A DNA stretch of 43,215 nucleotides from a virus. The notes under the pieces were generated by a model that made no database searches, was not told the DNA's origin, and saw only the letters and a list, made by a program, of their open reading frames with translations. Positions 4,559 through 36,205 of this stretch are shown piece by piece. The stretch lies in UHGV virus genome UHGV-0324072; one strand, written 5' to 3'. The position numbers and the translations under genes are program-made. How positions within the stretch are numbered: position 1 is the stretch's first letter; each line of letters starts with the position of its first letter.

Positions 4559-4846
4559 CCGTTTAGCCAACCCTTCCAGCAAATTTTTATACTCTTCAAA
4601 ATATTCCTCGACCAAATCATCGCCGAAATAGAAGTCGATATACTCGAGATTATCTCTTACGTTAAGCGATGCCGACATGGTGCTTAGTTGGCGTAAGCTA
4701 ATTAGCTTCATTTCTGTTTCTACGCAGAAAGGCCGGTAGGTATCAAGATGGCAAGAGATATTGAAGCATAAAGCGAACTCTCCGGCCACGGAGTGAACCA
4801 TATACACTTCGTTTTCTGCTTTATTGTGGAAAATTACGCCTTTCAT
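4556..4846 (-). CDS. hypothetical protein (96 aa), coupled to AlpA-like regulator gene
   Basis: ORF track; ATG 4846 overlaps stop of upstream gene (ATGA). Confidence 0.5.
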   Translation of the reverse strand: MKGVIFHNKAENEVYMVHSVAGEFALCFNISCHLDTYRPFCVETEMKLISLRQLSTMSASLNVRDNLEYIDFYFGDDLVEEYFEEYKNLLEGLAKR

Positions 4847-5025
4847 TTCACGTTCTCCTTAATCCATGCTTCGACTTTATTACGGTCAAATGTTCCCGGT
4901 AAACGGCGGCCCATAACCTTAATACAGCAGTCAGGGAATTTGCCGCTGCGCAACCAGTTATTAATGGTCTGACGTGTCACCCCGATACGCTCGGCTACCT
5001 CATTCTGTGTCATGTAATGTTGCAT
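4843..5025 (-). CDS. AlpA/excisionase-family HTH DNA-binding protein (60 aa)
   Basis: ATG at 5025 (RBS AGGGGA); MTQNEVAERIGVTRQTINNWLRSGKFP typical AlpA-type HTH; track start is an upstream alternative codon. Confidence 0.55.
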   Translation of the reverse strand: MQHYMTQNEVAERIGVTRQTINNWLRSGKFPDCCIKVMGRRLPGTFDRNKVEAWIKENVK

Positions 5026-5122: not shown

Positions 5123-5152
5123 TTGAAAGTTCTTGACACATGTTTGTATAAT
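5123..5152 (+). promoter_or_regulatory. candidate sigma70 promoter (TTGAAA-N18-TATAAT) facing a 350-bp ORF-free region
   Basis: TTGAAA 5123..5128, TATAAT 5147..5152. Confidence 0.45.
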
Positions 5153-5159
5153 GGTTTTG

Positions 5160-5380
5160 GGACTTGTATATATTACGGAGTTGACGAACCCTCCCCGAGG
5201 GATTCGTCAACCCCTCCCAGACAGCTGAGATGCTTGCCTTGTGGTTTAAGGATAAGTGTATCTAAATCTCATTTAAAGAAGTAACCCGCTGAAATATCTA
5301 CTGTTTCTTAATGTGCCGTAGATTCGCAACCGTAAAAATGTAACGATTATTGGGCAGGCCCTAAGCCTGCCCTTTAGTTA
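5160..5380 (+). ncRNA. candidate small non-coding RNA between promoter 5123..5152 and terminator 5353..5380
   Basis: no ORF over 11 codons on plus strand; 13-bp stem-loop 5181..5210 near the 5' end; GGGCAGGC-ctaa-GCCTGCCC plus TTTAGTT terminator at 3' end. Confidence 0.25.
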
Positions 5381-5444: not shown

Positions 5445-5473
5445 TTGCACACCACAACATAATAGGATACTAT
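5445..5473 (+). promoter_or_regulatory. early promoter, class TTGCAC-N17-TACTATTCA
   Basis: TTGCAC 5445..5450, TACTAT 5468..5473. Confidence 0.5.
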
Positions 5474-5507
5474 TCACTTATCGAAACGAGACAGAGGAGT
5501 GAGGGTT

Positions 5508-6518: not shown

Positions 6519-6555
6519 TACGCTGCTACACAGCAGCGTATCATTTTTCTCATTT
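6519..6555 (+). terminator. rho-independent terminator
   Basis: TACGCTGCT-acac-AGCAGCGTA then TCATTTTTCTCATTTTTG. Confidence 0.55.
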
Positions 6556-6633: not shown

Positions 6634-6662
6634 TTGCACGCTGGGATAGAATAGGCTACTAT
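6634..6662 (+). promoter_or_regulatory. early promoter, class TTGCAC-N17-TACTATTCA
   Basis: TTGCAC 6634..6639, TACTAT 6657..6662. Confidence 0.5.
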
Positions 6663-11733: not shown

Positions 11734-12980
11734 GTATTCAGCTATCCGCACCACAGGCGCTGTTCCTGAATTGTGATAACAAGTACAAAGCTTATGTCGG
11801 TGGGTTCGGCAGCGGAAAGACATTCGTAGGCTGCCTTGACCTGCTTACGTTTATGCTCAAGCACCCTGGTACGCGCCTGGGCTACTTCGGCCCGACATAC
11901 CCGGCCATACGTGACATCTTCTACCCGACATTCGAGGAAGCGGCTAACCTCCTCGGCCTCGATGTGCTGGTTAAATCCGGCGACAAAGAGGTCGTTGTTA
12001 CGCGAGGCAAGACGGTGCTCGGTACGGTTATCTGCCGTTCAATGGATAACCCCGGCTCGATAGTTGGTTTCAAAATCGCTGCGGCGGTCGTGGATGAACT
12101 GGACGTATTGAGCCGTGAGAAAGCCGAGCTGGCGTGGAACAAAATCGTCGCCCGTATGCGTCTGGTTATCCCGGGCGTAATTAACCACATCTCCGTCACC
12201 ACGACACCGGAAGGGTTCAAGTTCGTCTACTCCAAGTTCAAGGAGAACCCGACACCGAGTTACTCTATGGTGCAGGCATCAACTCATGAGAATGCGAGGT
12301 TCCTGCCGCCGGATTACATTAGCTCGCTAACAGAGACTTACCCGGCGCAACTGATTAACGCGTATCTGAATGGTGAGTTCGTCAACCTGACATCCGGCAG
12401 CGTGTATTACGCCTATGACCGCCGTAAGCACCGCAGCAAAGAGACAATTCAACCAGGCGACACTTTGTACATCGGGCAGGACTTCAACGTTACGAAGAAC
12501 GCAAGCGCCGTGTATGTACAACGTAAAGACGGCTGGCACGCGGTAGCAGAACTGAAGGGCCTGTTCGATACGCCGGACACCGTGCGCGTAATCACCGAGA
12601 AATGGAAGTCGCAAGGCCACCGCATCGTCGTTTACCCCGACGCCAGCGGCAAGAACCGAAAAACCAACTCAGCGTCAATCTCTGATATTGCATTACTCCA
12701 GCAGGCTGGGTTCGATGTTCGCGCTAAATCAGCCAACCCCCCGGTTAAAGACCGTGTTTTAGCCGTGAATACCGCGCTGGAAAAAGGTAAGCTGTGGATT
12801 AACGACCACTTATGCCCTGAGATAGCGAAGACGCTGGAGCAGCAGGCATATGACGATAACGGAGAGCCAGCTAAAGACGGCATCATTGACCATATGGCAG
12901 ATGCGCTCGGCTATCCTGTAGTTTACGAGATGCCGGTGGTTAAACCCGTAATCAACATCCCGGTGACTTTCGCACTTTAA
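11730..12980 (+). CDS. terminase large subunit
   Basis: Walker A GGFGSGKT near N-terminus; 416 aa; ATGA overlap with upstream gene. Confidence 0.8.
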   Translation: MSIQLSAPQALFLNCDNKYKAYVGGFGSGKTFVGCLDLLTFMLKHPGTRLGYFGPTYPAIRDIFYPTFEEAANLLGLDVLVKSGDKEVVVTRGKTVLGTVICRSMDNPGSIVGFKIAAAVVDELDVLSREKAELAWNKIVARMRLVIPGVINHISVTTTPEGFKFVYSKFKENPTPSYSMVQASTHENARFLPPDYISSLTETYPAQLINAYLNGEFVNLTSGSVYYAYDRRKHRSKETIQPGDTLYIGQDFNVTKNASAVYVQRKDGWHAVAELKGLFDTPDTVRVITEKWKSQGHRIVVYPDASGKNRKTNSASISDIALLQQAGFDVRAKSANPPVKDRVLAVNTALEKGKLWINDHLCPEIAKTLEQQAYDDNGEPAKDGIIDHMADALGYPVVYEMPVVKPVINIPVTFAL

Positions 12981-14467: not shown

Positions 14468-14487
14468 AAGGCCCCGCTAGGGGCCTT
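14468..14487. terminator. bidirectional hairpin terminator AAGGCCCC-gcta-GGGGCCTT
   Basis: perfect 8-bp GC-rich stem between convergent genes. Confidence 0.6.
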
Positions 14488-14491
14488 AGCT

Positions 14492-15145
14492 TTAACGTAT
14501 ATTAGCCGCACATTTACGCACAACCCGAGGTATCGCCTCTTTCAGTTCACCCCATGTATTAACGGCCTCCATGTCAAGAAGTGTCACCAGAGCTTTCTGG
14601 ATGTCACTTCGCAACTGATTGGTCTTCGCATCCTGAGAGTCCCATGTATCGAAACCCGTTACGTCGCGGATATCTACGGATTCCTTTACCGCTTTAGCCA
14701 CCTGTATGAAGTGTCCACTGTGGCCAATTCTTCCCTCCGTGCGCTCAATCATTCGACTAACGGCAGCGTTAAGCTCGACAAAGCTCACCGCGCCAATGTT
14801 TCGTAGTTCTACCTGCCGTTGTGTGATAAAGCGGTCGATAACGAGGAAATGGAAATAGGCGCTGTATTGCTCAGCAATATATACTGCCAGATGGAGACAT
14901 GCAAAGGTGCGACCGTTTCGGCCTTTCGTCGCCCTTATGGCATTCTCGATTCCGAGTTGTTTTTCGCATTCCTCCTTGAAAATCTTGAAGCCATCCGTTG
15001 CCATGACCTGGCGAAGCTCTCTTGCCCCCATGCCGTTGTCTAAACGCCAACGGTTCATCTGGTCAACCAGCTCGTTTACGTTAATAAAGTTTTCACGGTC
15101 AAAAGTGATTTCTCCATAAGGGAACTCTAATGTTTGCAGTTTCAT
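14492..15145 (-). CDS. KilA-N domain protein (217 aa), reverse-oriented insertion
   Basis: KGRNGRTFACLHLAVYIAEQYSAYFHFLVIDRF resembles the KilA-N core; ATG 15145 with AGGAG RBS. Confidence 0.5.
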   Translation of the reverse strand: MKLQTLEFPYGEITFDRENFINVNELVDQMNRWRLDNGMGARELRQVMATDGFKIFKEECEKQLGIENAIRATKGRNGRTFACLHLAVYIAEQYSAYFHFLVIDRFITQRQVELRNIGAVSFVELNAAVSRMIERTEGRIGHSGHFIQVAKAVKESVDIRDVTGFDTWDSQDAKTNQLRSDIQKALVTLLDMEAVNTWGELKEAIPRVVRKCAANIR

Positions 15146-16795: not shown

Positions 16796-16816
16796 AAGGC
16801 CCCATTACGGGGCCTT
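16796..16816. terminator. bidirectional hairpin terminator AAGGCCCC-attac-GGGGCCTT
   Basis: between convergent genes 16331..16792 and 16822..17025. Confidence 0.6.
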
Positions 16817-16821
16817 AGTTT

Positions 16822-17025
16822 TCAACGGAATTTTGTGTTTAAATCCTGCTCATGGACAACCCTCAGAACAGTGTCATAATCCCCGTATCTTCCAGGTTCA
16901 AATATATCTAATGCCTTGTAAGCAGACATTGCGTCAGGGAAAACCTGCAGAACCTTTTTAACCCGGCACAAGTCACCGTCGAACTCTTCATCGAACTCTT
17001 GAACTACTTCGCAAATTGCATACAT
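16822..17025 (-). CDS. hypothetical protein (67 aa), reverse-oriented insertion with own promoter
   Basis: ATG 17025, RBS AGGAGG; promoter 17053..17081. Confidence 0.5.
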   Translation of the reverse strand: MYAICEVVQEFDEEFDGDLCRVKKVLQVFPDAMSAYKALDIFEPGRYGDYDTVLRVVHEQDLNTKFR

Positions 17026-17052
17026 TTTTCACCTCCTGTTTAAGTTAACTGA

Positions 17053-17081
17053 ATAGTACCCTATTATATTGGGGTGTGCAA
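17053..17081 (-). promoter_or_regulatory. promoter TTGCAC-N17-TACTATTCA (minus strand)
   Basis: rc of 17053..17081; 31-bp core almost identical to 26174..26204. Confidence 0.5.
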
Positions 17082-17133
17082 ACTATTTATTTACGTATTC
17101 CAGTTATTCCTCCGAATTGTAAATGTTGGAATA

Positions 17134-17149
17134 AACTATTCGAATAGTT
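17134..17149. promoter_or_regulatory. perfect 16-bp palindrome AACTATTCGAATAGTT (candidate operator)
   Basis: self-complementary; overlaps TTGACT (17148..17153) of a candidate plus-strand promoter. Confidence 0.45.
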
Positions 17150-17182
17150 GACTTTTCACTAAAAATATGATAAGCTCCACCT

Positions 17183-17383
17183 GAGCTTGTGAAGTATGAA
17201 CAAGCGACCGCGGCGCGGGCAGGTAACGGAGCGGGACGTAAGTCCTGAGTGTAGTTACGCTGACGCGTTCGGAAGGGCCATACTCTATTGCTTGTGTAAA
17301 AAGTAACTGGTTTACTGAGATTACGCCGTTTCTATGTTTAAATGATAAGGACTAGCGCCCCGCTTTATGGCGGGGCTTTACTT
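17183..17383 (+). ncRNA. candidate small RNA or leader transcript, ending at terminator 17357..17383
   Basis: about 200 bp with no ORF over 37 codons, between candidate promoter (TTGACT 17148 / TAAGCT 17171) and GCCCCGC-tttatg-GCGGGGC plus TTTACTT. Confidence 0.2.
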
Positions 17384-17400
17384 ATCGAGAAAGGGGAAAC

Positions 17401-17787
17401 ATGAATCTTAAAGCAACTGTCGTAGCAGGAGCATGTTTCATCATCCTGGTTTACACACACGGCATCTACCAGTATCGCAGCGGATGGAACGAAGGCCGGG
17501 CTAATCTCGTTTCGCAGCAACAGCAGAAAGCACAGGCTGAGTTAGCGAAGAAAACACAACGGCAGCAGCAGGATGAATCGAAGGCCGCCGCCGCTGACAA
17601 CGAAGGCAAGACGAAATCAGAGGTGATTACCCGTGAAGTCGTTAAGTACATTAAAACGCCTGGTCGCAGCGTGTGCACTTTTGACCCTGAGCGCGTGCAG
17701 CTCAAGTCCCGCGCCGTCGCCAACGCCAATTCCATCCCCGGATACGACGATGATGCAGCCGCCGTGCAAACTGGCGCAGCCAAGTAG
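17401..17787 (+). CDS. i-spanin (Rz-like)
   Basis: N-terminal transmembrane segment TVVAGACFIILVYTHGIY then Gln/Ala-rich coiled-coil region; contains the embedded o-spanin ORF. Confidence 0.55.
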   Translation: MNLKATVVAGACFIILVYTHGIYQYRSGWNEGRANLVSQQQQKAQAELAKKTQRQQQDESKAAAADNEGKTKSEVITREVVKYIKTPGRSVCTFDPERVQLKSRAVANANSIPGYDDDAAAVQTGAAK

Positions 17788-17896
17788 CGACGCTGATGAG
17801 GATTTGGCCGTCGACGTTCAGAATGCTGAATGCGTACGGCAACTGAGACTGAAAGTGTTCATGTTGCAGGATTACGTGAGGAATATTCTGGAATAG
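17633..17896 (+). CDS. o-spanin (Rz1-like lipoprotein), +1 frame, overlapping 3' end of i-spanin
   Basis: signal peptide with lipobox LTLSAC, proline-rich PAPSPTPIPSPD, Cys residues. Confidence 0.55.
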   Translation: MKSLSTLKRLVAACALLTLSACSSSPAPSPTPIPSPDTTMMQPPCKLAQPSSDADEDLAVDVQNAECVRQLRLKVFMLQDYVRNILE

Positions 17897-17978
17897 TTGC
17901 CTTGCATGTTGGAATAATTTATTCTTGACATGTAAATCCGGGTGGCCCGGGTTCCAACGTCCAGGGGACATACTGACT

Positions 17979-23202: not shown

Positions 23203-24369
23203 ATGGCTACAACTCCTTTTAAGGGCGCGAATACCGCGCAATTCTATGTGGCGGAAGTGACCCCGGGTGTAACACCGACTAACCCGGTCTGGTCACCATT
23301 ACGTAACACGGGCGGTGTTCCTGCCATTACCCGTGACACACTGACCTCCAACGAACTCGACGGCAGCCGTGAAACTACATCCATCCGCACCGGTAACAAA
23401 CAGGTTAGCGGTGAATACGCAATTGAGCTTAGCTCTAAAAGCCAGGATGACTGGTTGGCAGGTGCTTTAGGCTCTACGTGGCGATCCGGTGTTTCTCTGC
23501 CAGGACTATCGATCACCGTCGCACCCGCGGGCAAGACGTTCACACGCGCTACCGGCAGTTTTATCACTGACGGAGTTGGGGTAGGCGACCTGATTGCGTT
23601 TACCGACTTAACAGGCGATAACGCAAAACCATTTATTGTTACCGCAGTAACGGCTACCGTTGTTACTGGTGCAGGCATCCAACACACCCTGACCACCGAG
23701 ACAAAAACTAGTAAGGCTAAAACTGGCGACACGCTGGAAACCGGTAACACATGTAAGACGTTCTCTATTCTCACCTGGTACAAAGGACAGTGCGGCGGGA
23801 CTTACGCATACACACTAACCAAAGGTGTGGAAGTTTCCGGTTTCACCGTTGAGCAGGCCGTTAACGCGATGGTTACAGGTAGCTTCCCGTTCATCGGGCG
23901 CAGCCAGGAGATTCTTACTACGCCGCCGTCTGGTTCCAACTTCTCCTCTGTCACGTTTGGTGATGAGCCATTCTCCTCGGTTGACGTTTCTGTGTTTGAC
24001 GGCTATACGCCGTTGCGTTGCGACAGCCTGACCATCACCAACGACAACAGCGCATCCGCGCAGTTCGAACTCGGCAACACTAACGTAGCGTTTGTAGAAC
24101 GTAACCGCGCGGCTAACACCTTCTCCATCTCCGGCAAGCTGTATGACATGGCGATGATTCAGAAGTTTATCAACGAGCAGCAGGTAGAGATTAACTCTAT
24201 TCTGGCGGGGGTAAACGGGGCTATGTCTTTCAGTTTGAAACGTGCGGAGCTTACGGCAGTTACCCCAGAGATTGGCGGACCTGAGTCAATCACTCAGTCC
24301 ATTGAAGGCCAGGCTACTGGCAACCAGTACCAGTCGTCTATTGTTATTCAGCGTATCACCTACGCATAA
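23203..24369 (+). CDS. major tail protein (tail tube)
   Basis: ATG 23203 (RBS AGAGG); about 390 aa, Thr/Gly-rich; followed by a strong terminator; called by position. Confidence 0.55.
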   Translation: MATTPFKGANTAQFYVAEVTPGVTPTNPVWSPLRNTGGVPAITRDTLTSNELDGSRETTSIRTGNKQVSGEYAIELSSKSQDDWLAGALGSTWRSGVSLPGLSITVAPAGKTFTRATGSFITDGVGVGDLIAFTDLTGDNAKPFIVTAVTATVVTGAGIQHTLTTETKTSKAKTGDTLETGNTCKTFSILTWYKGQCGGTYAYTLTKGVEVSGFTVEQAVNAMVTGSFPFIGRSQEILTTPPSGSNFSSVTFGDEPFSSVDVSVFDGYTPLRCDSLTITNDNSASAQFELGNTNVAFVERNRAANTFSISGKLYDMAMIQKFINEQQVEINSILAGVNGAMSFSLKRAELTAVTPEIGGPESITQSIEGQATGNQYQSSIVIQRITYA

Positions 24370-24373
24370 AACT

Positions 24374-24398
24374 AAGGCCCCGAAAGGGGCCTTTTTTA
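24374..24398. terminator. bidirectional terminator AAGGCCCC-gaaa-GGGGCCTT plus T-run
   Basis: perfect 8-bp stem followed by TTTTTATT. Confidence 0.65.
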
Positions 24399-24629
24399 TT
24401 ACTCATCAATGTTACTCCTGTACTCCCGTAACTTTTCCAGACTTTCAATTGCTTCCGCTAAGTCGGTTCCGGTGTCCTTGTGTCCACGTAAACCCATGCA
24501 CAATAGCTTCTTCAATGCGTGCTGTAACGCCGGGTCGCGGATGTCGAAAGCGCGGAGCACATCATAAACGTCTACTGTCATAGTGCTGCCGTGAGTATTT
24601 GTCATTGTGCGGTTGTATTTTGAAGTCAT
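24399..24629 (-). CDS. small protein (76 aa), possibly DUF3310-like; third gene of reverse cassette
   Basis: ATG 24629 overlaps stop of upstream gene (ATGA); VYDVLRAF...QHALKKLL motif recalled from DUF3310. Confidence 0.4.
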   Translation of the reverse strand: MTSKYNRTMTNTHGSTMTVDVYDVLRAFDIRDPALQHALKKLLCMGLRGHKDTGTDLAEAIESLEKLREYRSNIDE

Positions 24630-25756
24630 CCCAGCATCTCCGGTGAAATAGTTAAACGTGCGACCTCGCCATATTCGGCGCTATAAGTAATTACGTTTGC
24701 GCTACGCCCAGACATCCATCCGCCGCGCGAGGCGTAGGCGTCTTTCGCCGCTAAGGTGCGGTGTTGCTCAACAATCATGTTACGGCTTTCTACAATCTTC
24801 TGGTGGTGCAGGTGGCCTACGTGGGCGTAGCTGTAAACACTCTCGCCGAACGCTTTACGGAACTTGGCAATCATAACCGGTTCGATAGCGTAGAATCGTG
24901 CTTTATGCCCGTGATGGAAGAACAGCGTCGTTTTGCCGTGTTGCACCATCTTGTAAACATCCGGCGACGTATCAACAATCACTCGGCTGTCGTTTGAGTA
25001 TAAAACCGTGAACATTTCGGCAAGCCATACGGAGCCAACAGGGTCGTGGTTACCTTGAACGATTAAAAGTTTTACTGTGTGATGCTTAACCAGCGCCATA
25101 TCAACAACACGGCGGACCATACGAATCATGTAACGTACCAGTTTCTGATAGCGAGTATCCGCATCTAATACATGGCGCGACTCGGGGGTAACGGCATCAA
25201 GACTATCGAAGTGTGCGAAGTCCCCAAGCAGGTTAATAACTCCTGTTCCTGCATCCGGTGCTTTCTGAAACGCCGCGTCGAACCACCGAGAGAACAGGTC
25301 TTCTGCAATCTTCATGTCCCAGTCGTCGCCGCTCTCATCGGCCCATGCCAGCATACCGAGATGGAAATCAGATACAGTGTAAAGATTGAGTAGCTTGTCG
25401 TCACGTTTGGCGCGCGCCGCTTTAACAGGCGCAACGGGCGTAATCTCTGACTTCATGCCCTCTATTACGGCTTTCATCAATTCAACCTGACGTTCGGCGT
25501 CGGTATCAGTCTTAACCCATTGCAACTTAGTGTTGCCGAACTCGTCCACAAGTGACGACGTTCCTTTAATCTTGTAGCCGTCTGGCACAAGGTGGCTAAC
25601 GTCGCGCCCGTGGCCCACGCCTTTCTTAGCCAGCTTCGCTTTACGGATACGAATTACGCGGTCTGAGATGCCGTATTTACGGGCGATATCTACATTCTTC
25701 ATACCGGCGTTCAATTCTTCCTGCAACTGTTCGTCGGTTATTTTCTTCCGGGCCAT
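24626..25756 (-). CDS. N-terminal HTH fused to calcineurin-like (Mre11/SbcD-type) metallophosphoesterase
   Basis: phosphoesterase motifs in order: SDFHLG, LGDFAHFD, QGNHD, FFHHGHK, GHLHH; N-terminal KNVDIARKYGISDRVIRIR HTH-like segment; RBS GAGGA. Confidence 0.6.
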   Translation of the reverse strand: MARKKITDEQLQEELNAGMKNVDIARKYGISDRVIRIRKAKLAKKGVGHGRDVSHLVPDGYKIKGTSSLVDEFGNTKLQWVKTDTDAERQVELMKAVIEGMKSEITPVAPVKAARAKRDDKLLNLYTVSDFHLGMLAWADESGDDWDMKIAEDLFSRWFDAAFQKAPDAGTGVINLLGDFAHFDSLDAVTPESRHVLDADTRYQKLVRYMIRMVRRVVDMALVKHHTVKLLIVQGNHDPVGSVWLAEMFTVLYSNDSRVIVDTSPDVYKMVQHGKTTLFFHHGHKARFYAIEPVMIAKFRKAFGESVYSYAHVGHLHHQKIVESRNMIVEQHRTLAAKDAYASRGGWMSGRSANVITYSAEYGEVARLTISPEMLG

Positions 25757-25820
25757 GCTTATTCCTCGTGCTTAGGATTTGTCCTATTTAACCACAGTGG
25801 ATTCCTTTAAATAAAGGCAA

Positions 25821-26147
25821 CTATTTACTTTCTGCGCCTATCGCCCACCCTGTCATTACCATTTGCAGACGGGTGGCTGTCAGTAGGCTATAGAAAGCAT
25901 CTCCGTTTTTCTCTACCGAACGTATCACTGTGTAGGTTACGGCCTGCGGGGGTAGGTCCGATTTACCAACCTCTACAGCGGCCTCACACTCGCGAACCGT
26001 AGAGTCCTTAAATGCCTTTACGATAGTAGGGTCAGCTTTCTCAAGCACACCAGAAGTCATAAGAACAGATTCAGTAAATACCTGTTCGCACGGGGACCCA
26101 AAAGTAGCAAAAGGCATAAACCCCAGAGCTAATACTAATTTACGCAT
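25821..26147 (-). CDS. secreted/periplasmic protein (108 aa) with N-terminal signal peptide; first gene of reverse cassette
   Basis: MRKLVLALGFMPFATFG signal-like N-terminus, two Cys; RBS GAGGA; promoter at 26176..26204. Confidence 0.5.
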   Translation of the reverse strand: MRKLVLALGFMPFATFGSPCEQVFTESVLMTSGVLEKADPTIVKAFKDSTVRECEAAVEVGKSDLPPQAVTYTVIRSVEKNGDAFYSLLTATRLQMVMTGWAIGAESK

Positions 26148-26175
26148 AATTATTTCCTCAGTAAGTTACAGGTGA

Positions 26176-26204
26176 ATAGTACACTATTATATTGGGGTGT
26201 GCAA
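26176..26204 (-). promoter_or_regulatory. promoter TTGCAC-N17-TACTATTCA (minus strand) driving reverse cassette
   Basis: rc of 26176..26204; near-identical to 17053..17081. Confidence 0.5.
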
Positions 26205-26271
26205 GTAATGTGATAGAATAATTTTGCGCCTAGTGTCGCACACGAAAAGCGGGTGGTTCCCGTCTGGCGCA

Positions 26272-26298
26272 TTAACCTTAACCCGTAACCTCTTAACC
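26272..26298 (+). repeat. four closely spaced (T)TAACC direct repeats in leader of tail chaperone gene
   Basis: TTAACC TTAACC cg TAACC tc TTAACC. Confidence 0.6.
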
Positions 26299-26311
26299 AA
26301 AGGATTAAAGA

Positions 26312-26728
26312 ATGAAACTTTCTGATTTTTATTTTGCCGACCGCCACGCCGCCGGTACTAAAATGCCTATCCTTCTGCCCAGTGGTAAAGATTCCGGTGA
26401 ATGGTTGCAGGTCATCGGCCCCGATTGTGACGCTGGTGTTCGTGCGGGCCGTGCCTACACAACGGCAATTCGACGCCTTACGGAAGAACTTGCGCCATTA
26501 GATAAAGAGTGCGAGGCGCTGAATAACTGGGCGCGCTATAATGATGAGAAGGGCTGGCGGGTGATGGACCTGAACAAGCAGCTTGCCGTGGAAATCGTCA
26601 CCGGTTGGTCATTCGACGAACCATTCAGCAAAGAGGCGCTTGCTAACCTGTTAGACCAGTACAGTGGGTTGGCAGAGGCCGTAGTTAAGCATCACACCGA
26701 TAGCCGTGAGAAACTCTCGGAAAAGTAA
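26312..26728 (+). CDS. tail assembly chaperone (lambda gpG-like)
   Basis: 138-aa ORF directly upstream of tape measure gene; RBS AAAGGA. Confidence 0.5.
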   Translation: MKLSDFYFADRHAAGTKMPILLPSGKDSGEWLQVIGPDCDAGVRAGRAYTTAIRRLTEELAPLDKECEALNNWARYNDEKGWRVMDLNKQLAVEIVTGWSFDEPFSKEALANLLDQYSGLAEAVVKHHTDSREKLSEK

Positions 26729-27090
26729 AAGCGCTGTATGAATTTGCGCAATGGTGCTTTGTCGACCGCCACAAACGTAAGCAATTCGACGACATCGCGG
26801 CGGGCCACCAGGCGGCTTTGATTGCAATGGGCGTGATTAAAGAACCGCAGATGAAAGAAGCGACGGGGCCGGAATGCCCCGTTTCTCTTATCGACGTGTT
26901 CGAGAAATACCGTGCCATTAAATTCCTACAGCGCGAAACAGATGATACTATCGTTATAATCCCGCGCGATGCGCTCAAATGGCAAGATTTGGTAGCGTTT
27001 CGTTATGTCGCCGGTTACGGCATAAGTTTGTTCGAAGCCGAGGTTATCATGGGCTTAGACGGAATATTTGAGGGCAGAGAAGATGGCTGA
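26710..27090 (+). CDS. -1 frame extension of chaperone (candidate gpGT-like frameshift product)
   Basis: -1 frame opens at 26710 and runs to 27090; GGAAAAG slip-like heptamer (26719..26725) directly before the G stop codon; T-frame stop overlaps tape measure start. Confidence 0.4.
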   Translation, partial: ETLGKVKALYEFAQWCFVDRHKRKQFDDIAAGHQAALIAMGVIKEPQMKEATGPECPVSLIDVFEKYRAIKFLQRETDDTIVIIPRDALKWQDLVAFRYVAGYGISLFEAEVIMGLDGIFEGREDG

Positions 27091-29395
27091 TACGGCTTCC
27101 CTAATTGCCAGAGTAAAAACAGAAGGCGCTGATGTAGCCGCTAAACAGCTTGACGCTATGGCGGCATCCGCAGACCGTGCGGACACATCCGTAAACAAAC
27201 TAACGCCGGATGTTAATAAAGTAAACTCCGCTACGTCTAAAGCGGCTTCTGACGGTTTCGCTAAATTCCGTAACGCCGCCGGGCAGGTAGGCTTCCAGGT
27301 GCAGGACATGGTCGTCCAGTTGCAGTCCGGCACGTCTGCATTCGTAGCAATCGGGCAACAAGGCTCTCAGCTTGCGGGTGCTTTCGGCCCTGGTGGCGCG
27401 GTGCTTGGGGCCGTAATTGCTCTTGCGTCAGCAATCGGTGGTGTCCTGTATAAATCGTTAACCGAAGCAGAAGGCAGTTCAAAAGACCTCGAAGCCGCGC
27501 AGAAACAGTTAAAAGATACTTTCCAGCAAACGGCATCTGGCTCTCTCGAGCTGACAGACGGCCTTATCCAGCTTACCCAAATCAGCAGAGAGGCGGCAGA
27601 GACTCAGCTTGCTCTGGCTAAGGCCAACGCGGACCTTATCGCGCAGCAAACAGCTAAAGCCGTTCGTGAGGACGCAGAATCGTGGGAAACATGGAAAGCA
27701 TCCACGGCATCGGCGATTAGCCAGTACGATGCACTGACCTCTAAGGGTGCTGATGTAGGTGACACGTTAGAAAAACTCGGTGGTACTTACGAGGGTAACA
27801 TCGTAGGCGTCAACATGCTGGCGCAGAATATCGCGGAGCTTAGCAGTAAGTTCGGAGTTAACCGTGACCAGGCGCTGGAGATGATAGCGGCGCAGAGTGC
27901 GTTTAACAAAGAGCCAACCGCCGAGAATGCCCGTCGCATCGCCGATGTGTTTACCGACTGGCTCGGTAACACAAAACAGTTGAACCCGGAACTTATCCGC
28001 CTGACGGACAACGCCAACAAGAACGCCACGGCACTGGAGAACGCGGAGAAGTCAGCAAACGCGGCGGCAGAGGCCCAAAAGAATCTTGGTCGCAACGTCA
28101 ACTCAACCACGCAGAGATTCCAGGAACAGAACGAAGCTATCGTCAAAAACCAGCAAATCGCCATCTTAAGCGACCGTGAGCGTATCCGGGCGCAAGCTGA
28201 ACTTGATAAACAGGCGTTCGCTAAACGTGAAGCCGTCACCAAAGAACAGATAGCCGCGTATAATGCGGCCCGCGACGCGGAAGCGCAGCAAGACATCGCC
28301 CGCATTGACAAGACCGAGAAAGAGAAGGCCGACCGCGAGGCTAAATCGAACGAGGAACGTCTGGCGGCACAAGCCAAACGCGAAGAAACAGCGGCACAAC
28401 GTCAGAAAAAAGCGGCGGAAGATTTCCTGGCTACTGTCGACCGCACAACCGGAGACGAAATTTCACGTATCACAGCGGCAGAAGAACAGAAACTGGCGAA
28501 ACTTGAAGAGTTCAACCGCGCCGGAACGATAAGCCAGCAGCAGTACGAAAACGCCAAAACTCAAATTATGCTCACCGCCGAGCAGGCCAGACAGGAAGAA
28601 CTGGATAAGAAAAGAAAAGAGCAGCAGGAAAAGCAGCAGAAAGGCGACGACTTCATGGCCCAGATTATAGGTCAGAACGCCGCTGAGCTTGAGCTTCTCG
28701 ACATCCAGGAACAGCAGAAACTGTCGGTAGCAGATAAGTACCGCGAGCAGGGTTTGATTAGTGAGAAGCAGTACCAGGCGGCGCTTAACGCCATCAATGA
28801 GCAGTATGCTACGAAGCGTGCCGACGCAACGGCAACGGCCTTCGGTAACATGGCTTCAAACATCGGTTCGGCTTTGGGCGAGGCTTCTGGCGCGTATAAG
28901 GCATTCGCTATCGTACAGGCCACTATCGCCACGTACACCGCGGCTATCGAGGCGTACAAGTCCACAGCGGCTATCCCTGTAGTTGGTCCGTTCCTGGCTC
29001 CTGTAGCTGCCGCCGCTGCCGTTGGGGCGGGTATGGCGCAGATTTCCGCTATCAGGTCCGCACGTGAACAGGGCGGACAGTTATCAGCCGGGCAGGCTTC
29101 CACCATCGCTGAACGTGGTAAACCAGAAGTTATCATGCCCGCTGGTGCGTCACGTGTACGCACCGCACAGCAGATGAAAGAGATTATGGGACAAAACGGG
29201 TCTTCTTCCGGCCCATCTAATGTTACCATTGTAAATAATACATCGAGTCAGATTGGCAACGTATCCACCGAGCAGGATGATGAAGGCCGTCTGCGTATCA
29301 TCATAGAAGAGCAAGTTGCTGCATCTTTGCAGAACAGCAACAGTAAGATTAGCAAGGCCCGCAAGGCCACAAGAAACGCGCCGGGGTTTAAATAA
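27083..29395 (+). CDS. tail tape measure protein
   Basis: 770 aa, Ala/Gln/Glu-rich helical; ATG 27083; longest tail-module ORF. Confidence 0.8.
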   Translation: MADTASLIARVKTEGADVAAKQLDAMAASADRADTSVNKLTPDVNKVNSATSKAASDGFAKFRNAAGQVGFQVQDMVVQLQSGTSAFVAIGQQGSQLAGAFGPGGAVLGAVIALASAIGGVLYKSLTEAEGSSKDLEAAQKQLKDTFQQTASGSLELTDGLIQLTQISREAAETQLALAKANADLIAQQTAKAVREDAESWETWKASTASAISQYDALTSKGADVGDTLEKLGGTYEGNIVGVNMLAQNIAELSSKFGVNRDQALEMIAAQSAFNKEPTAENARRIADVFTDWLGNTKQLNPELIRLTDNANKNATALENAEKSANAAAEAQKNLGRNVNSTTQRFQEQNEAIVKNQQIAILSDRERIRAQAELDKQAFAKREAVTKEQIAAYNAARDAEAQQDIARIDKTEKEKADREAKSNEERLAAQAKREETAAQRQKKAAEDFLATVDRTTGDEISRITAAEEQKLAKLEEFNRAGTISQQQYENAKTQIMLTAEQARQEELDKKRKEQQEKQQKGDDFMAQIIGQNAAELELLDIQEQQKLSVADKYREQGLISEKQYQAALNAINEQYATKRADATATAFGNMASNIGSALGEASGAYKAFAIVQATIATYTAAIEAYKSTAAIPVVGPFLAPVAAAAAVGAGMAQISAIRSAREQGGQLSAGQASTIAERGKPEVIMPAGASRVRTAQQMKEIMGQNGSSSGPSNVTIVNNTSSQIGNVSTEQDDEGRLRIIIEEQVAASLQNSNSKISKARKATRNAPGFK

Positions 29396-30795
29396 TGAGC
29401 GACTTATATTTCCCACGTAGCCTTAAGCCGGTGGTATCGAAAGGCTACTCAATGACCAGACGCAACAACGTCTGGAGTGTAGATTTAGCCGGTGGCGGAG
29501 TGCGTCAAGGCCGTGACACGTATTATGATGTGTTCCCAATAAGCGTAACCCTGATTACATCTGCACTAGGGCGACAGGCGTTCCTGTCGTTCCTTGAGAA
29601 AGTGGACGGCGGCGCGTCAAGTTTCTGGATGGCGCATGACTTCGGCATGGGTATTGAAGATTATCAGGTAACCATCACGTCCACCATCGCGGAGTCCACC
29701 GAAGACGGCATTAACTGGACGATTACTTTCACGGCAACCGCCGAGAAATCCCCGTTCCAGGACCAAGAGAACCAGTGCCTGATTAACAATCTTCCAGATT
29801 TGTACGGTTGTTACGGGGATTGTCTGGGTAGTTTCCTGAAAATATACGCGAACTACGAGACTACGTTCCCGCGCATCTGGAGCAATGAAGGGCCTGCCGG
29901 GCATCCACCGATTAACCTTCTGGCGTCGACTCTTGATAGCCGCATTGTTTACGACGGGCCACAGGTTTACTACATCAACCGAAATGGCAATCTTGTGCAG
30001 TCCGCCACTAATGAATGGCCTCTTACGTTTATCGATGGAGTTGCTGTTGGGCGTGTACCACCGGAAAAGGCGGCTACCAATGTGGTAGAACATTCTAACA
30101 ACTTACTATCTACATCATTTTCACGTACCAGAACAACAACTACGGCGAGTTCTTTGAAGTTATCCCAAGAAACTTATGCCGCTAAATTAACCGCAACGTC
30201 GGTATCAGATAACCATTATATAAACAAGAGGGTGGCTCCCGCACCGGGAACAAGGTATTCTCTTAGCGTTATCATGAAAGCAGATGAGTACCAGTCGGCA
30301 GCGGTAGTCATCGGCAACCGAGCCGCTTTAGATAATTTCCAGTATGCCTATGTTGACTTAGCCTCCGGCTATTTGATATCAGGCGACACCTCAAGGTCGT
30401 TCGTAAGCAATCTTGGTGGTGGGTGGTATCACGTTTCAATGTCAGCGGACACTAACGACTCCGGCGGATTGATTTATTCGCAGATAAACATGTTGTCGCC
30501 GTCTAACTCCCTCACCTTCATGGGGGATGGTGTCAGCGGCTTCAATGTGGCTCTAATTCAATTGGAGGCATCGCCATTTGCCACATCGCCAATAGTAACC
30601 GATGCGTCACCGGTAACCAGACACACGGCATCGGCAAAAGTAGCAATGAATGGCGCAACAAGCATCGACATTATGTATTCCGACGGCTCTGTGGTAACTG
30701 TTCCGGCAGTTGGCGATTACGCCTCCATACCCCAAGCGGATTCGGCGTGGGGTAGTAAGTACATCACTCGTATTGATTTTAATGTGGACGGTTAA
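29395..30795 (+). CDS. distal tail protein with C-terminal extension (candidate carbohydrate-binding module)
   Basis: first gene after tape measure; C-terminal half has lower-GC, Ser/Thr-rich composition. Confidence 0.45.
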   Translation: MSDLYFPRSLKPVVSKGYSMTRRNNVWSVDLAGGGVRQGRDTYYDVFPISVTLITSALGRQAFLSFLEKVDGGASSFWMAHDFGMGIEDYQVTITSTIAESTEDGINWTITFTATAEKSPFQDQENQCLINNLPDLYGCYGDCLGSFLKIYANYETTFPRIWSNEGPAGHPPINLLASTLDSRIVYDGPQVYYINRNGNLVQSATNEWPLTFIDGVAVGRVPPEKAATNVVEHSNNLLSTSFSRTRTTTTASSLKLSQETYAAKLTATSVSDNHYINKRVAPAPGTRYSLSVIMKADEYQSAAVVIGNRAALDNFQYAYVDLASGYLISGDTSRSFVSNLGGGWYHVSMSADTNDSGGLIYSQINMLSPSNSLTFMGDGVSGFNVALIQLEASPFATSPIVTDASPVTRHTASAKVAMNGATSIDIMYSDGSVVTVPAVGDYASIPQADSAWGSKYITRIDFNVDG

Positions 30796-30798
30796 TTT

Positions 30799-31314
30799 AT
30801 GAGCCAGGAATCTGTAGAAGCCGCCTATCGCCGTAAGCTGGCCTCAAATCCCGACGGCGAGATGGACTACATCACGTTGCAAATCAGCCACCCGTTGTTG
30901 TCAAAGACGTACTATCTTGTTCGTGGGCTACAGGAACTCACGGCAACACTGGAGACAGGCGAAATTATCACGTTCGAGCCAACCCCGATGGAGGCGTCGG
31001 GGGCGGCTAACAACAGTGATATGGACCAGACGACTACGTTTACTTTACCGGATATTCTCAATCAACTTGACGATGAGATGGATAAAATCCCGATGAGTAA
31101 CACCGAGTTGCCGAAATTCCTCTTCCGCCGTTACGTCAGCACTGACCTGTCTTATCCGGCTGACGGTCCTGTCGTGTACGAGTTACAGGCCATCAACCAG
31201 GAGAAGGGCGAGTTCTCCGCGGATGTCGGTACACCTATGCTGAACCAACGAAGCACTGGTATACTGATGACACCTAAAGAGATACCGTTATTACGCGGCC
31301 TGTTGACCACATGA
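30799..31314 (+). CDS. minor tail protein (lambda gpL-like position)
   Basis: position. Confidence 0.4.
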   Translation: MSQESVEAAYRRKLASNPDGEMDYITLQISHPLLSKTYYLVRGLQELTATLETGEIITFEPTPMEASGAANNSDMDQTTTFTLPDILNQLDDEMDKIPMSNTELPKFLFRRYVSTDLSYPADGPVVYELQAINQEKGEFSADVGTPMLNQRSTGILMTPKEIPLLRGLLTT

Positions 31315-36182: not shown

Positions 36183-36205
36183 AAGGCCCCGTTTGGGGCC
36201 TTTTC
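36183..36205. terminator. bidirectional terminator AAGGCCCC-gttt-GGGGCCTT between tailspike and replication module
   Basis: perfect 8-bp stem flanked by T-rich tracts. Confidence 0.65.

Follow-up and report, generated by a model that had tools for sequence, protein, structure and literature searches.

The window analyzed here is a 43,215-nucleotide (nt) stretch of viral DNA, UHGV-0324072, which represents a Kagunavirus (Guernseyvirinae) genome near-identical to that of Escherichia phage MarieHeimVoegtlin_Bas70 (Bas70; PQ850619). Directly upstream of its spanin genes, a structured non-coding RNA of ∼200 nt is very probably encoded on the plus strand and would be transcribed by the host σ70 RNA polymerase from a start near position 17183 to a hairpin at 17357 to 17383. 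The role tentatively favored for this RNA, judging from its sequence and layout, is that of a cis-acting leader controlling read-through of the hairpin into the spanin and late genes; a trans-acting small RNA (sRNA) is nearly as likely. A preliminary description of the region, whose sequence features were all located at the coordinates it gave, had offered three readings: a small RNA, a regulated leader, and a switch under operator control. The small RNA and the leader are borne out as a class, given a conserved, covarying RNA with a conserved promoter ahead of the spanins, although leader and sRNA could not be separated. The weight that it gave to a 16-base-pair (bp) palindrome was not supported.

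Structure and conservation of the candidate spanin-leader RNA

The structured 5′ domain of the RNA (17181 to 17279, plus strand) is composed of two hairpins, P1 and P2, and two invariant single-stranded blocks, ACCGCG (17207 to 17212) and CGGAAGG (17270 to 17276). P1 (17185 to 17205) begins 9 nt past the −10 hexamer TAAGCT of the candidate promoter. P2 (17208 to 17272) is long and irregular and is built from CCG/CGG pairing, a 6-bp lower helix with two G-U pairs, a GG/A internal loop, an 8-bp upper helix, a conserved GGA/GUA internal loop, and the apical hairpin GGGAC-GUAA-GUCCU.

The region from 16800 to 17420, which shares 99.7% identity with Bas70, matched 184 phage records, nearly all of them Escherichia or Salmonella Guernseyvirinae phages. 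Further sequences from IMG/VR and metagenome contigs added a divergent A-like group, A2 (82% identical), and more variants of lineage B. Structured leaders, homologous or analogous, were found directly 5′ of the spanin start and in the same orientation in lineages A (that of the window), A2, B, C (Cornellvirus), D (Serratia phage Otaku), E, and G. In Jersey, the homolog of the whole unit is ∼58% identical and carries the promoter TTGACT-N17-TGtTACGCT together with the invariant ACCGCGG and TTCGGAAGGG, and its helices differ in sequence while pairing is kept.

Using a covariance model made from five A and A2 sequences and a hand-drawn structure of 30 pairs, the 5′ domain of the window was matched at 115 bits and all lineage-B loci were recovered (E = 2e−5 to 5e−5). 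Weak matches (E of ∼2) fell at the correct loci of lineages C, E2, and G, and one consensus structure uniting A and B with C, D, E, and G could not be derived by hand. In an alignment limited to the significant matches (15 distinct sequences), 97.2% of cells formed standard pairs, compared with 81.2% in shuffles (0 of 500 reached 97.2%), and 15 of the 30 pairs were altered on both sides. When partners were slid by 1 to 3 columns as a control, 27 to 37% were paired, and the covariation score, 0.438 in the alignment, was 0.006 to 0.059. Adding the weak matches raised the number of covarying pairs to 21 of 30. All of these figures lean towards structure because the alignment was fitted to the model structure. 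Independent single-sequence folds nevertheless agreed on the topology of P2 for all A and B variants (z-scores of −1.6 to −3.7).

Many compensatory changes could also be identified by eye. In lower P2, C-G, U-A, and A-U pairs replace one another, as do U-A and G-C in upper P2; the apical stem occurs as GGGAC/GUCCU, GGUGC/GCAC(U), GUGCC/GGCAC, and GGGCG(U/C)/(A/G)CGCCC, and P1 as GCUUGU/ACAAGC, ACGCU/AGCGU, and UUCGU/ACGAA. The nucleotides invariant in A, A2, B, and a paralogous copy described below were ACCGCG, the GG of the GG/A loop, the loop nucleotides G-A-(N)-C and AG(U/C)GUA, and CGGAAGG. Conservation of unpaired nucleotides between covarying helices is the mark of a specific binding or tertiary core.

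The RNA stretch is conserved to an unusual degree. Positions 17226 to 17425 shared 99.5% identity with Salmonella phage S100, the best of 949 windows of 200 nt (median, 73.5%; 95th percentile, 89.5%; next best, 93.5%). When a co-transferred partner gene was sought, no other segment shared with S100 came near this identity. The adjacent i-spanin had only 78% protein identity in the closely related phage S103, and in comparison with Jersey-type phages the RNA had diverged further (58% identity) than had the scaffold protein (89%, amino acids). Taken together, these values indicate an RNA module that is under strong constraint and also passes from phage to phage as a unit, and its near-identity in E. 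coli and Salmonella phages fits a partner common to both hosts, such as RNA polymerase.

The region had been described as free of open reading frames (ORFs), and this holds: the longest ORF between promoter and hairpin is 36 codons (17196 to 17306, plus strand). It is annotated as a hypothetical protein in Bas70, Schulenburg, and fBC-Eco01 but is probably no gene, and the annotation is probably spurious. A small protein encoded there is highly improbable, even though the frame is open in most lineage-A genomes, is restored in some variants by two indels 10 nt apart, and shares the peptide AFGR-LYC between A and B. No Shine-Dalgarno sequence precedes it; the start codon is an ATG in A, with variants and B each using a different one, GTG; Jersey has a deletion of the ATG, and A2 and the paralog lack it; and the frame is broken in Golestan. 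AFGR-LYC is all that the A and B ORFs have in common, and it is the translation of the nucleotide-invariant RNA core; the indels also preserve a hairpin. No homologous ORF was identified in C, D, E2, or G, and lineages E2 and D contained no ORF of ≥12 codons. A 3- to 22-codon upstream ORF following GGAAGGG was likewise rejected as coding, as starts and frames were not conserved.

Searches of the whole window against Rfam 15 at gathering thresholds gave no match. At permissive E values, the region and its related loci (eight loci, six other lineages) returned noise only (E ≥ 0.4, far below gathering scores). A scan for transfer RNA and transfer-messenger RNA found none, and no homolog of the RNA was found in 5,426 E. 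coli genomes. The pattern ACCGCGGN{35,65}TTCGGAAGGG, run over 596 Gb of bacterial genomes, gave chance matches only, in unrelated taxa, the pattern being too loose.

Promoter, terminal hairpin, and a second copy of the RNA

Transcription of the RNA would begin at a candidate σ70 extended −10 promoter at 17148 to 17176 (plus strand), made up of TTGACT (17148 to 17153), a 17-nt spacer, TG (17168 and 17169), and TAAGCT (17171 to 17176). The predicted start near 17183 corresponds to position ∼5269 of Bas70. This promoter scores only 8/12 and was missed by a consensus scan. It is conserved as a −35 element and N17 followed by TGnTAAGCT in lineage A, TGtTACGCT in B, TGaTAACCT in E, and TGgTACCCT in G; in the paralog it reads TTGACT-N17-TGcTAAGCT. 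Most members of B and E have a weak −35. Support for the promoter comes from the conservation of the −35/N17/TGnTAnnCT arrangement across lineages.

Beyond the 5′ domain, the 3′ half of the RNA (17280 to 17356) is less conserved. It contains TCTATTGCTT (17284 to 17293), a small hairpin, AGTAA-cuggu-TTACT (17302 to 17316), in which sequence changes sit in the loop, and the conserved stretch GAGATTACGCCGTTTCTATGTTTAAATGATA. This part is swapped for other modules in A2, C, E, and G, and the 3′ halves form a mosaic in which, for instance, two 3′ hairpins are common to C and E and a further module to A and B. Lineage F has only 3′ sequence in common with D.

The RNA ends in the terminator-like hairpin GCCCCGC(U)-UUAU-(G)GCGGGGC followed by UUUACUU (17357 to 17383). 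The hairpin proper (17357 to 17376; tail, TTTACTTATC) has 8 pairs, 7 of which are G-C, and was, jointly with a hairpin at 5352, the strongest plus-strand terminator-like site in a consensus scan. Compensatory variants include GCCCTGC/GCAGGGC, GCCCGGC/GCCGGGC, and GCCCGAC/GTCGGGC. It ends 3 nt 5′ of the Shine-Dalgarno region and 17 nt 5′ of the i-spanin ATG (17401), placing the spanin start right after it, as had been described. The label of terminator given to it earlier can be kept for lineage A alone, where the scan identified it as such. In B and E the hairpins failed the scan, with T-poor tails (UUAGCGU in B), those of C and G lack a T-rich tail by inspection, and lineage D has no hairpin at that position. 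With no T-rich tail in B, C, E, and G, the RNA there should be continuous with the spanin mRNA and hence a leader. A convergent minus-strand accessory gene parts the spanins from the scaffold gene in C and E, and the leader in these lineages would therefore serve only the spanin pair, ∼0.6 kb. Further strong terminator-like hairpins lie in the plus-strand arrays of the window at 6519, 19748, and 24374.

A second copy of the RNA was found with the covariance model in contig L040 (12251 to 12351; 85 bits). This paralog (12130 to 12400, minus strand) is located in the early region, heading the plus-strand early genes, between a divergent helix-turn-helix (HTH) gene and a family-I promoter, keeps the P1-P2 fold with further compensatory changes, and ends in a hairpin without a T tract. 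It has the same core promoter yet carries neither the palindrome nor the TATTCC array that precede the spanin-leader copy, and the array is therefore dispensable for the RNA itself. The paralog was present in at least 17 isolates at ≥97% identity and in ∼24 at ≥77%, each of which also has the spanin-leader copy; carriers include phiEc3, phiEc4, fFiEco02, fPoEco01, AV104, and Ivi.

The slot that holds the P1-P2 paralog in other Kagunaviruses is occupied in the window by a different unit of the same design (5123 to 5379, plus strand). This sister unit has a promoter, TTGAAA-18-TATAAT (5123 to 5152; 11/12), ∼220 nt of sequence in which only small ORFs are annotated and which contains a long hairpin, GTTGACGAA...TTCGTCAAC, and a terminator hairpin at 5352 to 5372, GGGCAGGC-cctaa-GCCTGCCC, followed by TTTAGTT (to 5379). 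The Bas70 annotation places two small hypothetical proteins across this unit. Its 3′ half recurs, conserved, in 386 phage records, and its promoter is similar to the one ahead of the spanin leader in Cornellvirus.

Possible roles of the RNA and its upstream sequences

If the RNA is a cis-acting leader, nascent P1-P2, either unaided or together with a factor from the phage or the host, would enable the transcribing polymerase to resist the terminator that follows, and unmodified polymerases would stop at 17377 to 17383, releasing an RNA of ∼200 nt. The upstream TATTC/GAATA array with its palindrome would then be a separate DNA-level input, through which a phage regulator probably times the promoter, outside the function of the RNA. 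Control of elongation in cis is favored because the layout copies the λ late leader and HK022 put, because the RNA of most lineages has to form a single transcript with the mRNA that follows, and because no polymerase or known antiterminator of the phage's own is annotated. It is favored further because the plus-strand arrays hold other strong hairpin terminators and because an RNA that is nearly the same in phages of both hosts is consistent with a partner conserved to the degree that RNA polymerase is.

Several observations weigh against this role, in addition to the fitted alignment behind the covariation figures. With a unit of only ∼0.6 kb, C and E have less need of processive antitermination. 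Both RNA units of the window end in canonical-looking terminators and look like stand-alone sRNA genes, and the early-slot unit is followed by a separate promoter. Inspection of the lineages, A2, and the paralog revealed no conserved σ-dependent pause element after the start: the −10-like AAGTAT at 17192 to 17197 occurs only in lineage A, is replaced in A2 and the paralog (GAGTTATC and GAGATATC), and is absent from B and E. No consistent covarying terminator/antiterminator alternative was found; in truncated folds, the 5′ arm of the terminator paired with P2 (AGCGGG) in A and with the GGAAGGG region in B. The covariance model gave no match (E up to 10) in HK022 positions 24000 to 31000, a segment in which the presence of both put sites was not confirmed, and homology to HK022 put was rejected. 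The literature on these phages held only in silico promoter and terminator lists, with no transcriptome, start-site mapping, or non-coding RNA report.

A stricter form of the cis-acting reading, drawn by analogy with put, is unlikely. In it, the RNA would be an RNA-only processive antiterminator unrelated to put in sequence, with P1-P2/CGGAAGG binding the emerging host polymerase and carrying it through terminators. One copy would head the spanin and capsid genes and a second, in many phages, the early genes. No put-like system would have preceded it beyond the lambdoid prophages, and the 99.5% identity would be accounted for as well, the polymerases of E. coli and Salmonella being almost alike.

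That promoter, ∼200-nt RNA, and terminator form an independent gene for a trans-acting sRNA is a realistic possibility. Such an RNA, directed at a target in the host or the phage, could base-pair by way of its single-stranded CGGAAGG region, sequester a protein, or serve as a decoy against defence systems, with the site ahead of the spanins merely a convenient slot. The unit comes with a conserved promoter of its own, and in the window its terminator scores as canonical; its paralog lies in a different genomic slot with a separate promoter after it; and the occupation of that slot in the window by another promoter/ORF-free RNA/terminator unit suggests that these phages carry RNA cassettes. Extreme conservation across phages of two hosts and the invariant unpaired motifs flanked by covarying helices also fit an sRNA. 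Against this, no discrete 3′ end would be expected without processing in B, C, E, G, and the L040 paralog, given their lack of a T-rich tail, and the unit is always co-oriented with, and abuts, the ribosome-binding site of the next gene. The UUUACUU tail (UUAGCGU in B) is poor as an Hfq-type tail, not being a long uninterrupted U tract. Sites complementary to the conserved single-stranded CGGAAGGG occurred in the phage genome at chance level (host targets were not searched), and the absence of a homolog from E. coli genomes also counts against an sRNA.

It is rather doubtful that the palindrome and TATTC array are the operator of a dimeric phage HTH protein that switches between accessory and spanin/late transcription, with the RNA incidental. 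The palindrome, AACTATTCGAATAGTT at 17134 to 17149, is indeed the sole perfect 16-bp palindrome of the window and overlaps the TTGACT of the RNA promoter, as had been described. It consists of two back-to-back GAATAGT half-sites, and its right half extends across the −35 into an imperfect dyad with one mismatch, AATAG-TTGA-CTtTT (17143 to 17156). In first-order Markov random sequences with the length and dinucleotide composition of the window, however, 0.76 perfect 16-bp palindromes were expected, and 52% of sequences had at least one. Its occurrence is thus no more than chance would give, and the palindrome alone is evidence of nothing. It was intact in 32 of 35 distinct lineage-A promoters, was replaced by CTTTATTCAAAAAGT in B and AATTATTCCAAAAGT in E, and was absent from the homologous promoters of Jersey-like phages, E, and G; lineage G lacks the right half entirely. 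The emphasis placed on the palindrome earlier is therefore unsupported, and it reads as a lineage-specific accident of two adjacent half-sites. In Markov-1 simulations, perfect 12-bp palindromes were depleted across the window (4 versus 12.4 expected), which may reflect avoidance of restriction-type sites.

The array offers more to the operator reading. Five TATTC(C/G)/(C/G)GAATA sites are located between 17096 and 17146 (at 17096, 17105, 17128 [inverted], 17137, and 17141 [inverted]); they include the inverted repeat TTATTCC-N17-GGAATAA, and the left half of the palindrome belongs to the array. TATTCC/GGAATA clusters were identified at only two positions in the window, 17096 to 17146 and 17880 to 17916 (before the scaffold gene), and so solely at the RNA promoter and the scaffold promoter; no such arrays were found at the operon starts near 11.1, 15.2, and 26.2 kb. 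The arrangement ATTCCAnTTATTCC-N16/17-GGAATA is kept in lineages A, B, and E and is absent from the early-region paralog. The array is probably the regulator-binding region of the two late promoters. The weak −35 of most B and E members suggests dependence on an activator, and the phage encodes small HTH proteins; HTH proteins of these phages include one of 60 amino acids at 4846 to 5025 (minus strand; HTH_17) and the Bas70_0050 regulator.

Recurrence of the AATAG/CTATT half-site in other promoter families, another point of the preliminary description, is both correct and significant. The heptamer GAATAGT occurs 12 times in the window (4.5 expected) and the dyad AATAG-N4-CTATT, allowing one mismatch, 11 times (0.98 expected), counts reached in 0 of 100 shuffles in either case. 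When aligned, the dyad defines two σ70-like promoter families, CTTGCAC-N10-AATAGnnTACTATTCA, with the dyad over the −10, and TTGACA-N4-AATAGnnnnCTAT/TATAGT, with the dyad in the spacer, and it lies in the core of at least eight σ70-like promoters (1806, 1850, 5461, 6650, 17052, 26175, 38779, and 42338). The first family includes the divergent promoter of a 67-amino-acid accessory gene (17052 to 17081, minus strand; −35 TTGCAC at 17081 to 17076, −10 TACTAT at 17058 to 17053), whose −10 is overlapped by a dyad at 17052 to 17065. Near-identical copies of this promoter at 26173 to 26204 and 5445 to 5476, and related ones near 6650, make the minus-strand promoter proposed at 17053 to 17081 real as a member of a repeated family. 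The dyad is probably the operator of a phage repressor. The genome paper on fBC-Eco01 reports the motif, from PHIRE, as "phage promoters" or phage RNA polymerase promoters (PMC9825357), a label applied although the near-identical Bas70 has no RNA polymerase annotated.

These enriched dyads favor a DNA-binding regulator, but their geometry is unlike that of the chance-expected, lineage-specific palindrome. The RNA is moreover conserved far better than the array and, in the paralog, is found behind the same core promoter without any array, and hence is not incidental. An operator is also compatible with a cis-acting leader and does not exclude it.

A post-transcriptional element of the 5′ untranslated region (UTR), controlling spanin translation or mRNA stability, is distinctly unlikely. 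The last hairpin would carry an anti-Shine-Dalgarno arm (as a riboswitch, thermosensor, or protein operator), or would be a structure for stabilization or for processing by RNase III or RNase E, with transcription elongation left uncontrolled. Hairpin and Shine-Dalgarno lie a short, conserved distance apart, and by inspection one arm of the hairpin complements the G-rich Shine-Dalgarno lineage by lineage (GCCCC/GGGG in A and B; ACCCC/GGGGU, CUCCC/GGGAG, and CCGCC/GGUGG in E and G), but this complementarity is short and driven by G/C content. A conserved core with lineage-specific 3′ platforms is the usual pattern of riboswitches, and P2, with two helices split by an internal loop, resembles phage RNase III sites; no Rfam riboswitch or leader was matched, however, and the paralog, upstream of a different operon with another promoter before the next gene, would be left unexplained.

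A DNA or replication element, whether an R-loop primer or origin activator (as with ColE1 RNA II or T4 origins) or hairpins in single-stranded DNA, is scarcely credible: a strong promoter is combined with a structured G-rich transcript, the paralogous slot lies at a point of divergent transcription and a cumulative GC-skew minimum near 5000, and the phage encodes its own DNA polymerase and primase-helicase, but GC skew tracks gene orientation and is uninformative, no skew feature occurs at 17.2 kb, no iterons or AT-rich unwinding element lie beside the RNA, and the conserved G-U pairs in P2 point to pairing of RNA, not DNA.

Genomic context and comparison with known systems

In Bas70, the annotated neighborhood runs on the plus strand through the portal, head-morphogenesis, and Hoc-like decoration proteins, then through a small hypothetical gene on the minus strand and the hypothetical protein over the RNA region, to the Rz-like spanins, scaffold, and major head protein. 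No RNA polymerase or antiterminator was identified among its 83 annotated features, of which the small proteins of unknown function were not all scanned against profile libraries. In the window, positions 17387 to 17896 (plus strand) contain the Shine-Dalgarno GAGAAAGGGGA, the i-spanin (17401 to 17787), and an overlapping o-spanin ending at 17896. The two spanins are annotated as Rz-like in Bas70 and as i- and o-spanin in Schulenburg, with a weak DUF2514 match.

Downstream of the spanins lies a block (17878 to 17978, plus strand) that contains the second GGAATA cluster, of three sites, and what may be the promoter of the scaffold and capsid genes (TTGCCT, 17897 to 17902; N17; TATTCT, 17920 to 17925). 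It also contains a covarying hairpin (17935 to 17953) and a hairpin, GTCC-agg-GGAC (17959 to 17969), enclosing the scaffold Shine-Dalgarno, which is possibly a translational operator. Lineages A to F all retain this block, and compensatory changes within it give AATCCGGG/CCCGGGTT, ACACCGGG/CCCGGTGT, and AAGCCGGG/CCCGGCT, and GTCC/GGAC versus GACC/GGTC (L103).

Two minus-strand accessory genes, at 16822 to 17025 and 14492 to 15145, break up the plus-strand head-gene array. The slot upstream of the RNA varies: the window has the 67-amino-acid ORF (16822 to 17025) there, Schulenburg a β-clamp fragment, and Salmonella phage S100 a Dam methylase, and in Jersey it is empty. The 67-amino-acid ORF has no Pfam match; in relatives, the slot carries a Dam methylase, a β-clamp fragment, or RusA. 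The second gene encodes a 217-amino-acid protein with a weak KilA-N match, and Bas70 has no such gene at that position. Near-identical bidirectional terminator hairpins, AAGGCCCC-nnnn-GGGGCCTT, flank minus-strand gene insertions at 16798 to 16818, 24374 to 24393, 14468 to 14487, and 36183 to 36202.

The RNA family is absent from Rfam and from the searchable literature, and the family, its fold, and its duplication in a group of virulent siphoviruses are new. Elements of this type, in which a structured leader close to a promoter and a terminator precede phage lysis and late genes, are already known. Guernseyvirinae (Kagunavirus, Jerseyvirus, and Cornellvirus) are common therapeutic and model phages, represented in the BASEL collection by Bas70 to Bas76, and the RNA provides a testable handle on how they time late and lysis gene expression with host RNA polymerase alone. 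Should it act in cis on RNA polymerase, it would constitute a second, independent family of RNA antiterminators; should it act in trans, it would be a new phage sRNA common to E. coli and Salmonella phages. Either way, it merits entry in RNA family databases.

Among known systems, eps-associated RNA (EAR) and RNA polymerase-binding aptamers are likewise conserved structured RNAs in or ahead of long operons that alter termination in cis. EAR differs in organism and in fold, and the RNA described here has no Rfam match. The CI RNA of P4 and the c4 RNAs of P1 and P7 are small structured RNAs from the 5′ leader of the operon they control and act through premature termination. They pair with repeated target sites (seqA/seqC, a′/b′) in the same transcript and serve lysogenic immunity, whereas no complementary repeats were found here and the phage is virulent.

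With the nut sites of λ and P22, which act with N, the RNA shares the presence of two copies behind two promoters, and the GNRA apical tetraloop of lineages A, C, and E (GUAA, GCAA) resembles the GNRA-like loop of boxB. Unlike nut, the element is much larger, lineage B has loops of CUCA, CACA, or CGCA, and neither a boxA-like motif nor an arginine-rich N-like protein was recognized.

In the λ late operon, the promoter PR′ gives rise to the 194-nt 6S RNA, and the terminator tR′ is read through by Q, followed by lysis genes, including the Rz/Rz1 spanins, and head genes. The layout here is near-identical, with a promoter at 17148 to 17176, a leader at 17183 to 17383, a hairpin and TTTACTT, spanins, scaffold, and capsid. 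It differs in that no Q-like gene is annotated (in Bas70), no conserved −10-like pause element is present, and the terminator is non-canonical in sister lineages; furthermore, the leader is structured and covarying, which the Q mechanism does not require.

The put RNAs of HK022 act via the β′ zinc-binding domain of RNA polymerase, suppressing downstream terminators in cis. They are ∼70 nt, with two bulged stem-loops just past their promoters, and are independent of protein factors (PMC9378689). The RNA described here differs in that its host genome is that of a virulent siphovirus rather than a lambdoid prophage, in that it continues for 100 to 200 nt in variable modules, and in its short P1. 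It resembles put in lying, as its inferred start implies, promoter proximally, perhaps in its two bulged stem-loops (P1 and P2, ∼88 nt compared with ∼70 nt for put), and in being followed by terminators and long operons with no dedicated antiterminator protein annotated. As with putL/putR and nutL/nutR, many relatives carry two paralogous copies behind two promoters.

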